Shown piece after piece: positions 50,503 through 62,931 of a DNA stretch of 64,000 bases. Origin of the DNA: an uncultured bacterium (GTDB lineage Bacteria; Omnitrophota; Omnitrophia; Omnitrophales; Abzuiibacteriaceae); NCBI GenBank assembly GCA_964387845.1, contig CAYLXA010000007.1:50481-114480 (forward strand), given 5' to 3'. The notes under the pieces were generated by a model that made no database searches, had not been told where the DNA came from, and saw nothing but the letters and a program-made list of their open reading frames with translations. Both the position numbers and the translations under genes were made by a program. Positions within the stretch are counted from its first letter, which is position 1, and each line of letters opens with the position of its first letter.

Positions 50503-51111
50503 CTACTTCTTATGACCGGCTTTCCAATTCTCCAGAAAATGATAAACGCCTTTGGCCATCATATCAATTTCTAAATTCACGGGATCACCCCGCTTTTTTG
50601 ATCCGATGGTCGTCGCCCGGATGGTTTCCGGGATAATGGCCGCTTCGACTGAATCCGGGTTCAGCTTTTGGATGGTCAAACTGATGCCATCCACCGCAAT
50701 AGAACCTTTCGGCACAAAATAGCGAATTATTGAGGGCGGAATGGCAATCGCAAGAAGCAAATTCCCGCCGCGTACGGTTTTTCTCCTAATTTTTCCGACG
50801 CCGTCCACATGCCCCGAAACAAAATGCCCGCCCAGCCGGTCCATCGCCCTCAGCGACCTTTCCAAATTGACCCGGCTTCCCTTTTTCCATTTTCCGGCCG
50901 TCGTATCCCGTAAAGTTTCGGGCACCACATCTACCGAAAACGAATCATCATGTATCTCGATCACGGTCAGGCAAATTCCGCTCACGGAAATACTTTCGCC
51001 CAGTTCCAGCGAATCCGGCCACGGCTCCGATTCAATCGTGAGGCGGATCCCGCTCCGTTTTTTTTCCTTTTTAATAATAACGCCCGTTTTTTCAATGATG
51101 CCGCTGAACAT
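50503..51111 (-). CDS. ribE: Riboflavin synthase
   Basis: 202 aa; MFSGIIE.. start, two lumazine-binding repeats. Confidence 0.85.
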   Translation of the reverse strand: MFSGIIEKTGVIIKKEKKRSGIRLTIESEPWPDSLELGESISVSGICLTVIEIHDDSFSVDVVPETLRDTTAGKWKKGSRVNLERSLRAMDRLGGHFVSGHVDGVGKIRRKTVRGGNLLLAIAIPPSIIRYFVPKGSIAVDGISLTIQKLNPDSVEAAIIPETIRATTIGSKKRGDPVNLEIDMMAKGVYHFLENWKAGHKK

Positions 51112-52280
51112 TATGAAAGTTCTCCCGAAATCACCATATCTTCACCGATTTGCTGCATTTTTTGATTTCGAAGGCGGACGGCTTGGCCGATTTTCGAAAT
51201 TCCACTTCCCTCGATTGAGGTTTTTGCATTTCTACCGCCGATAATTTTCGGCGCAATCACAAAATAAATTTCATCCGCCAGCTTTTGTTCCAGGAAGCTT
51301 GCCGCCACTTCACCGCCGCCTTCAACCAAAATCGACGTGACACCGAGCTTTCCCAATTTTTCTAAAACGGAATTTAAATTGAGCCGCTGATGCCCATTCA
51401 TGGAAACGGGCAGAATCGAAACGGAATTTTTCGAGAATTTTTTAACCGCTTGTTTTAAATGAGAATCGGCACAAACCAGAATCGCGGTTGAATCATTGCG
51501 GAAAATAGCCGCCGATTTTGAAATTTCGGCTTTCGTATCCAGCACGATTTTCCACGGCTGAAACCCCCTCACCCTTCCCTCTCCCTGAGGGAGAGGGGAA
51601 CCTTTTTTTATTTTTATTCCCTCTCCCGCTTGCGGGAGAGGGGTGGGGGTGAGGGATCGAACCGTTAATTTCGGATTATCGCGCAGCACCGTATTTTTGC
51701 CGACCAAAACCGCATCGACCTGAGACCGCAGCCGGTGCGCAAAGGTTCTGGCTGCTTCGCTCGAAATCCATTTAGAATCGCCCGTGTGTGTTGCGATTTT
51801 GCCATCGATGCTTTGCGCCAGTTTCAAAATAACGTACGGCTTACGCTTGAGAATCCACTTCCGAAAAGCGCGCGTCTGGCTTTCGGCTTCCTCCCGCAGC
51901 ACGCCGGTTTTCACTCGGATCCCGGCTTTTTTTAAAATCCGGATTCCATTTCCGTTATGCTTGGGATTAGGATCGGGCGCCGCGATGACGACTGTTTTGA
52001 TGCCGCTCCGGATGATGGATTGGACGCACGGCGGTGTTTTTCCCCAGCTCGAACAAGGTTCTAACGTCACATAAAGCGTTGCGCCGCGCGCACGCGTGCC
52101 GGCTTTTTTGAGTGCGCCCAATTCAGCATGTGCGCCGCCGTAAAATTGATGAAAGCCTTCGGAAATGATTTTCTGATTTTTAACAACGCAGGCGCCCACA
52201 ACGGGATTGGGGCTCGTAAATCCTCGGCCGCGTTCGGCCAGCGCCAAAGCGCGCTTCATGAATGTATCGTGATTTTTCAT
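51111..52280 (-). CDS. ribD: Bifunctional riboflavin biosynthesis deaminase/reductase RibD, carrying an in-frame ~30-aa insert
   Basis: 389 aa; CMP/dCMP deaminase zinc motif plus RibD_C reductase; insert SLTPTPLPQAGEGIKIKKGSPLPQGEGRVRGF lies in a variable loop. Confidence 0.9.
   Translation of the reverse strand: MKNHDTFMKRALALAERGRGFTSPNPVVGACVVKNQKIISEGFHQFYGGAHAELGALKKAGTRARGATLYVTLEPCSSWGKTPPCVQSIIRSGIKTVVIAAPDPNPKHNGNGIRILKKAGIRVKTGVLREEAESQTRAFRKWILKRKPYVILKLAQSIDGKIATHTGDSKWISSEAARTFAHRLRSQVDAVLVGKNTVLRDNPKLTVRSLTPTPLPQAGEGIKIKKGSPLPQGEGRVRGFQPWKIVLDTKAEISKSAAIFRNDSTAILVCADSHLKQAVKKFSKNSVSILPVSMNGHQRLNLNSVLEKLGKLGVTSILVEGGGEVAASFLEQKLADEIYFVIAPKIIGGRNAKTSIEGSGISKIGQAVRLRNQKMQQIGEDMVISGELS
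51564..51655. repeat. Nested palindromic element inside ribD coding sequence
   Basis: Outer inverted repeat CCCCCTCACCC...GGGTGGGGGTGAGGG enclosing hairpins CCCTCTCCC-tga-GGGAGAGGG and CCCTCTCCCgcttgcGGGAGAGGG; length keeps the ribD frame. Confidence 0.6.
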
Positions 52281-52796: not shown

Positions 52797-53369
52797 CTAA
52801 ACCAAAAAGTTTGATTTTAAATGTTTGGCGCTTTCCTCTAATTTTTGTCTTAACTCGGAATCGGAAATTAAATTCGCCATTTCAAGCGCCGACGTTGCGG
52901 CCTCGCGGCCTTTATTCCCCATTTTGCCGCCTGCGCGCGCGACGGCTTGTTCGTAATTGTTGACGGTCAGAAGGCCGAAACCGACCGGAATTTGATAATC
53001 CATCATGACGCGCACGATGGCATCCGTCGTGGACTGCGCAATGTGTTTGTAATTGGAAGTTTCGCCGCGGACAATGCAGCCGAGCGCCAAAAGCGCGTGA
53101 AAACTGACGATCCCGAACGGCGACAATTCTTTTTTATGCGTCCGCTCACCGCCGCGGCCACGCTTGGCAAGCGCCTGCAGTGCCAGCGGAATTTCAAAAG
53201 CACCGGGCACCCACAAGACTTCAATTTCGACGTCCGAAACGCCCGAACGCCTCAATTGATTGAGTGCGCCATCCAAAAGCTGTTTGGTCACCGTTTCGTT
53301 AAAGCGCGACACGGCGATCCCGAAGCGCTTTCCTTTTCCGATTAAATTACCTTCTCTCACGGTTGACAT
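52797..53369 (-). CDS. ribH: 6,7-dimethyl-8-ribityllumazine synthase
   Basis: 190 aa; [14 protein letters not shown] start motif; about 20-aa insertion relative to typical 155-aa forms. Confidence 0.85.
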
Positions 53370-59309: not shown

Positions 59310-59836
59310 ACTTTACACCAAACTCCGCAAAATCTCAAATTCCAAAATAGGCGCCTCACCCGTCAAGCTTGCAACATTCAACCTGCCGGCTAGGGGTGTC
59401 TTCCGGCACCGGTAGTTCGCAAGCTCCTGTCCCAATTATCAATAAAGCGTCTTGGGCGTATATTCATTTGAGAATTGGGGCCGCCCTCACCTTCAATGAA
59501 AAATTCAATGGAGGTGACGGGCGGCGGCGGCCGAGTGCCTTGGCTCTCGCCATTTGGACCTGCAGACATAATAACGCTGCAGGACCAAGCTCCAAATGGC
59601 TCCGAGACATGCCGTTTGAGAACCTTTTTGGGCGAGTAAATTATTCTGCGGCATTTTAACTGCGAAGACCTTGGCGAAGGCGCGTGCGGAGACCGACCGA
59701 GCATGGTGGCACTCAATAGGAAAATCATTTCCTATTGAGTGCCGAGGGAGGTCGGAGCCCGAGCGAGATTTACCTCGCTGGGGTAAATCGAGCGTCGACT
59801 GAGCCAAGGGTCTGAGCGTAGTTAAAATGCGCAGGA

Positions 59837-62638
59837 TTAATTTGTGAAGGATTTTACGGAGTCGGCGCAGCGCTCGCAGAGGTCGGGGTCATCTGCAAAT
59901 TGGCCGACTTGCGTCGAATAATTCCAGCAACGCACGCATTTGGTGCCCTCGGCCTTTGTGACTTCGGCATCAAAAGCATCCGTCTGGCCTGGATTTTGCG
60001 TAAGCGCAAGCTGCGAAACAATCAAATAGAAACGCAGATTGGACTCATATTTCTTCAGGATTTCGAACGTCTGGCTGTCCTTGACGATGACTTTCACTTT
60101 TGCATCGAGAGACGCCGCGATTTCGCCTTTTGCGCGCTTCTCTTCTAATTTAAGGAGCACTTTCTCGCGCAGCGCAAAAATCACCGCCCAATCATCGAGA
60201 ACTGCGCGCGACACATCGGCAAATTTCGGCCACTCGGTTTCGTGCACATTGGTTTTCGCCTCATTCGGGACCATCTGCCACGCCTGCTCGCTCGTAAAAG
60301 ACAAAATGGGCGCCATGAGGCGCAAGAGATCGTTTAAAATCTGCCAAATCGCCGATTGCGCAGAGCGCCGGCCGACGGACTTCGGCGCGGCCGTGTAAAG
60401 CCGGTCTTTCACGACGTCTAAATAAAACGAGCTCAAATGAAAATTGCAGAGTTCGTAAGAAAGCTGAAACACTTTCAGAAAATCAAAATGGTCGTAGCTT
60501 TTCTGGATCGCGATAAAAATCTCTTTTGATTTCTCGGAAATATATTGATCGACCGGATCCATGTTGCCGGGATTCACAAAATCCGCTTTCGGGTCAAAAT
60601 CATACAAGTTGGCGATCAAATACCGGAATGTGTTCCGGATTTTGCGGTAAGCGTCTGCGATGCGCTCGAGGATTTCTTTCGAGAGCCGCACGTCCTGCGA
60701 ATAATCGACGGACGCGACCCAAAGGCGGAGGATGTCCGCGCCATATTGCTTCATCACATCCTGCGGCGCCACCACGTTTCCGGCCGACTTCGACATTTTC
60801 TTGCCTTCCCCGTCCATCACGAAGCCGTGCGTGAGAATAGAATCAAAGGGCGACTTGCCTTCGAGCGCCATCGACGCGATCAAAGAACTCTGGAACCAGC
60901 CGCGATGCTGATCGGATCCTTCCAAATAAAGGTCGGCCGGATATTTGAGGTCCGAGAAATCCTTTTCATTTTTCAAAACCGCTTGATGGCTCACGCCCGA
61001 ATCAAACCACACGTCGATAATGTCTTCTTCTTTTCTAATTTCAGGAGCCGCACAGCATTTCGGCAATTTTCCGCCCTCAAAAAATTCCGAGACGTCTTTT
61101 TCAAACCACGTATCGGCGCCTTTCTCCGAGAAAAACTTTTCGATCTGTTTCTCGGTCTCGAGATTAAAGATCTTCGAACATTTGCGGCAGCGAATAATCG
61201 GAATCGGCACTCCCCAAAGCCGCTGGCGCGAGAGGCACCAATCGGGCCTTGTCTCGACCATCGAGCCGATCCGGTTTTTGCCCCACGCCGGAAAAAACTG
61301 GACTTGCTTGTTGATGGCGTTTGTCAGATTCGCGCGCAAATCCTTGTGATCAACTTTGAGGAACCATTGATTGGTCGCGCGGAAGATGATCGGATTCTTG
61401 CAGCGCCAGCAATGCGGATACGAGTGTGTGAAATTTTCCTGGAACAAAAGTGCATTCTTTTCGCGCAAGAGTTCGATGATTTTGGCGTTCGCTTTAAATA
61501 CAAAAGCACCTTCCAAGAGTTTAAAGTCGGATGTGAATTTTCCGCGGCTATCGACGGGTGACAAAATCGGAAGTTTATACTCAAGCCCCGCCGCGTAATC
61601 TTCTTCGCCGTGTCCGGGTGCGATGTGAACAATTCCCGTGCCGTCTGTGGCGGATACGTAATCCGCGAGAATTGCGACAGAAGCTTCCGATGAGAAGGGC
61701 CGACGTGCTTTGAGGCCTTTTAACTCACTGCCCTTGAATTTCTCGAGCGTTTTGACTTCGTTAAGTCCAAATTTCGCGCGCAGACTTTCGACGAGAGACT
61801 CGGCTGCGATAAAAATTTTGCCGCCGACTTCGAAAACGGAATATGTGAGGCCCGCATTAAACGCCATGGCAACGTTTGCCGGAAGTGTCCACGGCGTGGT
61901 GGTCCAAATGATCACAGACGCGGGTTTGCCTTTCGCGAGGTTCATGATCTTGAGATTGACGGGCTCTGTGGTGTTCAAAATTTCAAACGCCACAAAGATC
62001 GCCGTGTCGCCCTTGTCTTCGTATTCAAGCTCCGCGTCTGCGAGTGCGGTTTCGCAATCAAAACACCACGGAACAGGTTTCAAGCGGCGCTCGATAAAAT
62101 CATCTTTGAGGAGTCTCAAGAAGCTTTTCGCGATCGCAGCTTGATAGTAAGGCGCCATCGTGAGGTACGGTTTTTCCCAATCACCGAAAATGCCGAGGCG
62201 CTTAAACTCCTCGCGCTGCTTCTCCATGAATTTCGACGCGTAATTCCTGGCTTTCTTGCGGAACTCAAGTTGATTCACATCTTCTTTGCGTTTGCCGAGT
62301 TCTTTGAAGATCGCGTGCTCAATCGGCATGCCGTGGCAATCCCAGCCCGGAACGTAATGCGCGTCAAAGCCCGCCATCGCCTTTGATTTCACGATGATGT
62401 CTTTGAGGATTTTATTGAGCGCGTGTCCGATATGAATCACGCCATTCGCGTACGGCGGCCCGTCATGCAGAATGTATTTCGGTTTGCCCTCGGACTTCGC
62501 GCGGATTCTGGAGTAAAGGCCGTCCGATTCCCATTCCTTCAGCTTCTTCGGCTCAAGTTCCGGCAATCCCGCCTTCATCGGAAAGTCGGTTTTCGGTAAA
62601 TTAACTGTCTTCTTGTAGTCTTTCTTCTCAATAGTCAT
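59837..62638 (-). CDS. ileS: Isoleucine--tRNA ligase
   Basis: 933 aa; [16 protein letters not shown] (HIGH), KMSKS, C-terminal zinc finger CVRCWNY...CERC. Confidence 0.9.
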
Positions 62639-62680: not shown

Positions 62681-62776
62681 CGTTTTACAATCTCATCTCA
62701 ATTTATTTCTCTCCGCTTCCCTGCGCGCGCCAATTTCTAGGCGCCATGCCTAAACAGAAATTGTCGTGCTCAGCCT

Positions 62777-62811
62777 ACGTCAAAAATTTGAGCCGTTCAA
62801 ATTTTTGACGT
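62777..62811. repeat. Perfect 15-bp-stem palindrome ACGTCAAAAATTTGA-gccg-TCAAATTTTTGACGT
   Basis: Exact inverted repeat; no flanking U-tract on either strand. Confidence 0.5.
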
Positions 62812-62931
62812 AATGGCGCTCCGAGAAACAAATTGATCTTTGATTGCGTCATCCTGGCACCTTTTTTATTTTTATTTCGAGTCAGAAGATGCCTAGCACC
62901 TTTGTTGCGATTATATCTTTGTAAATGGCAC

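Follow-up and report, generated by a model that had tools for sequence, protein, structure and literature searches.

We analysed a 64-kb stretch of contig CAYLXA010000007.1, referred to in its entirety as the window, which comes from a metagenome-assembled, probable Omnitrophota genome. On its minus strand the window carries the gene ribD, whose product contains the Pfam domains dCMP_cyt_deam_1 (PF00383) and RibD_C (PF01872), matches RibD structures in the PDB at 1e-78 and is a complete bifunctional RibD. Within this gene lies a palindromic element of 92 nucleotides (nt), which is the subject of this work. The features of the locus are:

51111..52280, minus strand: ribD open reading frame (ORF), 389 amino acids (aa), bifunctional deaminase/reductase, intact, with the insert in frame
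51561..51656, minus strand: insert of 32 codons in ribD, SLTPTPLPQAGEGIKIKKGSPLPQGEGRVRGF (by translation)
51564-51655: composite palindrome, 92 nt, within ribD and translated in frame
51564-51574 and 51647-51655: complementary outer arms, CCCCCTCACCC and GGGTGAGGG, respectively
51577-51597: perfect hairpin 1, CCCTCTCCC-TGA-GGGAGAGGG
51619-51642: perfect hairpin 2, CCCTCTCCCGC-TT-GCGGGAGAGGG
51566..51597, minus strand: triplex-motif unit A, CCCTCTCCC TCA GGGAGAGGG AA GGGTGAGGG, with its hairpin at 51577-51597 and its third block at 51566-51574 (regular-expression scan and sequence)
51598..51618: A/T-rich spacer of 21 nt, GAACCTTTTTTTATTTTTATT on the plus strand, IKIKKG when translated from the coding strand
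51619..51655, plus strand: triplex-motif unit B, CCCTCTCCC GCTTGC GGGAGAGGG GTGG GGGTGAGGG, with its hairpin at 51619-51642 and its third block at 51647-51655 (regular-expression scan and sequence)

Read along the plus strand, positions 51564-51655 are CCCCCTCACCC TT CCCTCTCCC TGA GGGAGAGGG GAACCTTTTTTTATTTTTATT CCCTCTCCC GCTTGC GGGAGAGGG GTGG GGGTGAGGG. The initial annotation of this DNA had described the segment as a composite palindrome with two internal perfect hairpins, and both parts of that description were borne out: the hairpin stems (10 and 11 bp) are perfect, and the predicted RNA fold of the 111-nt region reaches -63.6 kcal/mol (z = -6.2), with equally good folds in none of 200 shuffled sequences. 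The 9-mer CCCTCTCCC occurs four times in the window, every time within the element, against 0.24 expected occurrences, and none of 100 shuffles reached four. The G+C content of the element is 59.8%, compared with 49.3% in the remainder of ribD, which marks the element as foreign to that gene. Neither the 9-mer count nor the regular-expression scan found a second copy of the triplex motif in the 64 kb. Comparison with Rfam gave only sub-threshold matches to generic hairpins (the best scored 25 bits, the gathering score being 40). With no Rfam match near the threshold, we do not take the element for an intron, a riboswitch or a recoding element, and its size rules out an intein.

The insert lies in the reductase domain, between the LTVR strand and the QPW...LD strand, where it replaces the usual loop of ~6 residues between ...LTVR and QPW... 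with a net gain of ~26 aa (78 nt, 26 codons). As had been claimed, the ORF is longer than is typical for RibD: the proteins of the two nearest relatives (~70% identity), which are encoded on the syntenic contigs L003 and L004, have 364 aa (without the insert) and 374 aa, compared with 389 aa in the window. At the position of the insert P0002, a RibD ~70% identical to that of the window (P0001), has the short loop RHVKARKQPW. The closest homologues overall are metagenome proteins and the nearest named ones are Omnitrophica proteins (51-52% identity), on which the taxonomic assignment of the host is based; a search of genome contigs with the window RibD as query returned only RibDs of other phyla, at no more than 46% identity. 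Among 98 parsed relatives the mode of the loop length is 10 aa, compared with 36 aa in the window RibD, and extended loops at this site were seen in about 14 of them. RibG of Bacillus subtilis has a loop of 5-6 residues there; in the E. coli type of RibD the loop is much longer, and the aligned stretch of 8dq9 covers up to 21 of the 32 insert positions. All 54 columns that are invariant across 25 aligned relatives are kept in the window RibD. Translation of 51656..51561 and the alignments agree with the earlier description of an in-frame insert at a variable RibD loop. The insert is lineage-specific and in frame and leaves the gene intact; it is missing from the nearest orthologues in the alignment, and the palindrome can be read in the DNA itself.

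Because assemblers can be misled by low-complexity G/C palindromes and the genome was assembled from a metagenome, an assembly artefact or a chimeric join in ribD had to be considered. An independent Logan assembly of run SRR15237813 (a 3.2-kb contig) contains a ribD with DNA identical to that of the NCBI contig. The ORF is in frame, both of its flanks are collinear with the orthologues, and other RibD genes, from separate assemblies, have analogous elements in this loop. We regard an artefact as extremely improbable.

An AlphaFold2 model of the window RibD has a mean predicted local distance difference test (pLDDT) score of 81.7. Residues 211-237 of the insert score below 50 and form no secondary structure, while the 10-residue blocks covering residues 241-320 after the insert average 90-97 and those just before it 77-90. 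The model predicts the insert to be a disordered surface loop, which is rich in Pro, Gly and Lys. Stop codons occur in only one of the element's three coding-strand frames. An exhaustive phmmer search with the 32-aa insert against 1.84 billion proteins gave no match with E <= 0.001, such a short low-complexity query having little power, and a word-indexed protein search with the insert and four flanking residues on each side returned one candidate and scored none.

The element itself belongs to a family of repeats that has been known for about 30 years, without an established function or mode of spread. These BoxC/PIT repeats of E. coli and other Proteobacteria are said to have been described by Bachellier and colleagues in 1999 and by Hoyne and Maher in 2000 and 2002. 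A full-text search for both 9-mers pointed to Holder et al. 2015 (PMC4666352), where a single repeat, successively named BoxC, PIT (potential intrastrand triplex) and TMECO, is given the motif 5'-CCCTCNCCC N3-6 GGGNGAGGG N3 GGGNGAGGG. The same paper reports 23 copies in E. coli K-12, 'always intergenic' and five of them in inverted pairs, and 3610 copies across 262 proteobacterial genomes; it knows of no transposase and no role as promoter or terminator for these repeats, and it links triplex-motif loci to local genomic instability (PMC4666352). All six 9-nt blocks of the window element are blocks of perfect E. coli copies (nos. 1, 2, 4, 12, 17 and 20 of Table 1 in that paper), so that the element and the family share the three identical blocks CCCTCTCCC, GGGAGAGGG and GGGTGAGGG. 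Both units have the 9-bp hairpin formed by CCCTCNCCC and GGGNGAGGG, with perfect stems and loops of 3 and 6 nt, which are within the published 3-6 nt. The third block, GGGTGAGGG, is perfect in both as well, and is separated from the hairpin by 2 nt (AA) in unit A and 4 nt (GTGG) in unit B. Under the general definition of a triplex motif loops may have 1-6 nt (PMC4666352), and the loops of both units fall in this range. The blocks have a composition that would permit a purine-motif intrastrand triplex (G*G:C, A*A:T and T*A:T triads).

A counterpart was found in the lldD-trmL spacer of E. coli K-12, which we read directly and which holds the inverted pair 17+18. The first hairpin of this pair, CCCTCTCCCTCAGGGAGAGGG (TMECO no. 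17), is identical to the 21-mer hairpin of unit A. The window units are likewise inverted, represent two different unit types (they differ from each other in both loops) and share with this pair the tails-out order, whereas the four other E. coli pairs are tails-in. The differences are that the spacer is 21 nt long and A/T-rich in the window and 59 nt long in the E. coli tails-out pair; that loop 2 has 2 and 4 nt in the window and 3 nt in TMECO; that the window element is in frame inside an enzyme gene and the E. coli copies are 'always intergenic'; and that the host is probably a member of the Omnitrophota, while the published survey concerns proteobacterial genomes. On the sequence evidence we identify the element as two inverted units of the BoxC/PIT/TMECO 'intrastrand triplex motif' with minor deviations in loop length. 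The arms that had been annotated as the outer inverted repeat of a nested palindrome are real; because the element consists of two inverted units, as in the E. coli tails-out pair, they are better read as the pair of third (triplex) blocks.

The family was found well beyond the published range. Of 5426 complete E. coli genomes, 5419 contain a match to the canonical query. A relaxed pattern was used for viral contigs, and the counts that follow are among the matches listed: 193 units in all, of which 150 are solo (single-tailed), together with 8 tails-in pairs, 6 direct pairs, 6 double-tailed single hairpins and 5 tails-out two-hairpin pairs, the pair of the window not being counted. The tails-out pairs at L124 and L125 are ~98 nt long and resemble the 90-nt pair in the window; L124 also contains the hairpin of unit B, loop included. 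Units within ORFs of at least 200 codons make up 52 of the 193. On IMG/VR contig L049 (1942-2113 and 5292-5544), four tandem direct unit copies with a period of 39 nt lie inside a 474-codon ORF, and further units lie in the 696-codon ORF of a phage portal protein, where they follow the Pfam portal domain and are read through in frame. RibD is probably not the only case of triplex-motif units in frame, and to judge from these pattern matches BoxC/PIT/TMECO repeats are far more widespread than published. Nearer to the window, the contig of its closest relative (L004, 2530-2614) has a canonical tails-in pair in the ileS/histidine-kinase spacer of 169 nt, which shows that this lineage has the family in its customary intergenic setting. 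The syntenic spacer of the window (59310-59836, ~530 nt) lacks such a pair and has no more than short remnants resembling GGTGAGG (at 59353 and 59484).

The outer arms CCCTCACCC/GGGTGAGGG resemble terminal inverted repeats, the element behaves in frame like the palindromic elements of Rickettsia (PMC10969869), and tails-out pairs of ~98 nt recur in environmental contigs, some within long ORFs. These observations could suggest a true miniature transposable element, either of the Rickettsia palindromic type or a miniature inverted-repeat transposable element (MITE), which is moved by a transposase and invades many genes. Most family members, however, are the solo single-tailed units counted above, so that what resembles terminal repeats is the third block of each of two units. 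In addition, the insert has no target-site duplication and replaces the original loop codons, which is not the pattern of a MITE; the 64 kb hold no second copy; no transposase is known for BoxC/PIT (PMC4666352); and the Rickettsia elements, by their published description ~150 bp long and Rickettsia-specific, are different. We consider this explanation very unlikely.

The same RibD loop carries other inserts. P0008 has one double-tailed triplex-motif hairpin (CCCCTCACCC CAA CCCTCTCCCC TCA GGGGAGAGGG TT GGGTGAGGGG), placed in another frame and at another junction codon, and P0012 has the element of P0008 with a second, unrelated hairpin nested inside it. The junctions and reading frames of both differ from those of the window insert. 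P0001, P0008 and P0012 are 52-56% identical to one another and belong to different subclades, with short-loop sequences between them in the tree, and the simplest explanation of their triplex-motif inserts is that they arose independently. P0012 and P0029 are 91.7% identical in nucleotide sequence and have nothing in common in the loop; the loop is therefore hypervariable, a property that the site shares with the reportedly unstable BoxC/PIT/TMECO loci. An unrelated perfect palindrome (GGGGACAGTCCCC...) occupies the loop in P0003, and a tandem pair of a different repeat occupies it in P0112. In Bacteroidales/Lentimicrobiaceae (L139, L142, L144, L156 and L158) the loop contains runs of the 7-nt repeat GACAACR, translated as QQTTDNGQQ, and in L139 and L142 it contains the strong palindrome AGAGACACACGGACGTGTGTCT besides the heptamer runs. 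The tolerance of the loop for repeat-derived inserts therefore crosses phyla.

Two further inserts bear on the possibility that the window palindrome arose locally, through fold-back or template-switch errors at a structure-prone site, and did not come from a dispersed repeat. In P0071 (L007, compared with P0080 on L291) a 57-nt insert lies between 11-nt direct repeats and contains an inverted copy of the repeat, and the insert of P0016 (L209) holds inverted copies of the flanking ACGGTTCGT. Being composed of adjoining ribD sequence, copied in direct and in inverted orientation, these inserts carry what looks like the signature of template-switch or fold-back replication errors and not that of imported repeats. 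The window element, in contrast, has no similarity to the flanking ribD sequence. It reproduces 2 x 27 nt of blocks, base for base, of a family found in E. coli and many environmental contigs, and its 21-mer hairpin is identical to an E. coli copy. A local origin is accordingly highly improbable for this element.

A different question is whether the insert is functional and selected. At the protein level, the longer loop could have a role in oligomerisation or substrate access, as in the E. coli type of RibD, and the long loop of that type, together with the extended loops in about 14 of the 98 related RibDs, would fit such a role. At the level of nucleic acid, the element could act as an mRNA structure that pauses ribosomes or stabilises the transcript, as an antisense terminator, or as a triplex or hairpin that makes ribD mutable. 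The perfection of the hairpins and of the six 9-nt blocks, as well as the local instability reported for triplex-motif loci (PMC4666352), would agree with a role of this kind. A candidate for the terminator was found by a consensus scan:

51575..51609, plus strand, antisense to ribD: intrinsic-terminator-like site, the hairpin of unit A followed by a T-run

The same scan predicted no sense-strand terminator at the element. The neighbouring genes all have the same orientation as ribD, which leaves no obvious transcript for the antisense site to terminate and makes the site probably incidental. PIT elements in E. coli are without promoter or terminator activity (as cited in PMC4666352), and no Rfam family came near its threshold. 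For the protein, the predicted disorder of the insert speaks against such a role. Between lineages the loop inserts are unrelated in sequence and length, and they are missing from the closest relatives, both of which count against a conserved requirement. We judge a selected function to be clearly unlikely, without dismissing it as readily as an artefact.

The explanation that we favour, with a probability of roughly three in four, is that a tails-out BoxC/PIT/TMECO pair is embedded in ribD as a tolerated selfish or passively acquired passenger of a hypervariable, permissive loop, and not as an adaptation. Each unit consists of a 9-bp C/G hairpin and a third, G-rich block, with which the hairpin could fold into an intrastrand purine-motif triplex. 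The pair would have arrived as DNA from another copy, with transposition of a single-stranded DNA (ssDNA) hairpin, template switching and recombination at a structure-prone site as candidate routes, and would have lodged in the LTVR-QPW loop, displacing the original ~6 codons. As it is poor in stop codons, it would be transcribed and translated along with ribD, and its product would be a disordered surface loop that the enzyme tolerates, the insert presumably being neutral. Comparison with relatives showed neither a target-site duplication nor a flanking direct repeat at the window insert. Replacement of the loop and the lack of a target-site duplication are easier to reconcile with recombination, template switching or a hairpin-directed mechanism acting on ssDNA than with cut-and-paste transposition by a classical transposase.

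Several observations weigh against this explanation. The strict TMECO consensus, which has a 3-nt loop 2, is missed by one nucleotide in either direction. With one copy only in 64 kb, the element is no more than a putative multicopy repeat within its genome. A metagenome scan for the order hairpin, spacer, hairpin (GGGAGAGGGGAACCTTTTN{5,22}CCCTCTCCC) gave 0 matches, the doublet with its spacer thus not being found elsewhere in the JGI metagenomes, and the 32-aa peptide had no significant match among the 1.84 billion proteins. Neither a target-site duplication nor a clean empty site can be defined, since the original loop was replaced rather than interrupted. Finally, the perfect state of the hairpins and the six blocks fits a recent arrival, but selection on structure would explain it too.

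Recurrence at one loop raises the question of chance. Of the 120 closest RibDs, 3 have triplex-motif inserts, two of the three having been found after the initial flag, and about 160 ribD loci of other phyla yielded none. Outside the ribD loops, 2.0 Mb of DNA flanking ribD in diverse phyla contained 8 units, and ~120 kb of DNA from probable Omnitrophota relatives contained one site. Under a model of uniform placement, a density of about one site per 120-250 kb and a loop of 30 nt would leave the loop occupied in 1-3 of 10,000 genomes. By this rough estimate ~0.03 inserts are expected among 120 RibDs, compared with the 3 observed. Because permissiveness alone cannot lift the occupancy of a site above the uniform rate, either a preference for the site or structure, or a much higher element load than this small sample suggests, is likely. 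Recurrence may thus reflect the permissiveness of the loop combined with some preference for site or structure. A stronger proposal, which we regard as possible but doubtful, is that triplex motifs of the BoxC/PIT type are a cross-phylum mobile element with site- or structure-directed insertion, for which the LTVR-QPW loop of RibD is an integration hot spot. If it were true, these repeats and the template-switch palindromes would provide a general route to new surface loops of enzymes in streamlined uncultivated bacteria.

Other structured or inserted sequences were noted in the neighbourhood. The gene ribH (lumazine synthase; 52797-53369, minus strand) is two genes upstream of ribD, with nusB between them. 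Its product has 190 aa owing to a 17-residue insert at residues ~72-88, which is common to L003 and L004 and absent from more distant relatives, and the DNA of which has no significant secondary structure (z = 0.35). Being shared by L003 and L004 and lacking secondary structure, it is therefore an older, fixed loop insertion. Farther away, two perfect palindromes with 16-bp stems, GGCACTCAATAGGAAA-ATCA-TTTCCTATTGAGTGCC (59708-59743) and TACGTCAAAAATTTGA-GCCGT-TCAAATTTTTGACGTA (62776-62812), lie in the spacers on either side of a 933-aa ORF (59837..62638, presumably ileS by synteny with L003 and L004) and are unrelated to the triplex motif; they may be operators, terminators or another kind of repeat.

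Among known systems, the initial annotation had compared the element with the palindromic elements of Rickettsia, reportedly described by Ogata and colleagues in 2000. The in-frame behaviour is indeed analogous: in both cases a palindromic repeat sits in frame at a permissive site of a conserved housekeeping enzyme, is translated and leaves the gene intact. Membership of that family could not be upheld. Rickettsia elements are ~150 bp long, form ten families and number dozens in a genome, with many copies inside genes (PMC10969869), and by this description they are set apart in size, composition and host from the window element. The latter is a 92-nt G/C-rich pair of a cross-phylum motif with a single copy in 64 kb (roughly 55 genes) and so does not show the many copies that are typical of the Rickettsia elements.

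REP and REPIN elements, which are said to be mobilised by RAYT transposases (reportedly in work of Nunvar and colleagues in 2010 and of Bertels and Rainey in 2011), share with the window element a short G/C-rich hairpin with a conserved unpaired flank and the formation of a longer hairpin by inverted doublets; they are dispersed and mostly intergenic. REPs, however, are extragenic by definition and unrelated to BoxC/PIT in sequence, and we know of no association of BoxC/PIT with a RAYT. ERIC/RU, NEMIS (Correia) and RUP are small intergenic repeats that are sometimes fused in frame to ORFs (Delihas 2007, PMC2759123). Their intragenic copies differ from the window element in that they belong to other families, are 100-170 bp long and usually affect gene ends or hypothetical genes, not a conserved enzyme fold.

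Compared with these systems, the window element is an instructive oddity and not a new kind of system, and its novelty is contextual (the intragenic location, a new phylum and a loop that is struck recurrently) rather than categorical. BoxC/PIT/TMECO repeats have been described as strictly intergenic and essentially proteobacterial, whereas here the motif recurs, base for base, in many viral contigs from the environment and in a genome of probable Omnitrophota origin. The element shows that the motif can ride in frame inside a conserved enzyme, which extends the notion of 'selfish DNA in coding regions' beyond Rickettsia, and it cautions that where metagenome proteins contain peptides like PLPxGEG, SPLRGEG or LTLSPKRGEG, these stem from translation of the BoxC/PIT repeat and are not protein motifs. 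With one RibD loop repeatedly struck, pairs such as P0012 and P0029 offer natural before-and-after material on how such elements move.

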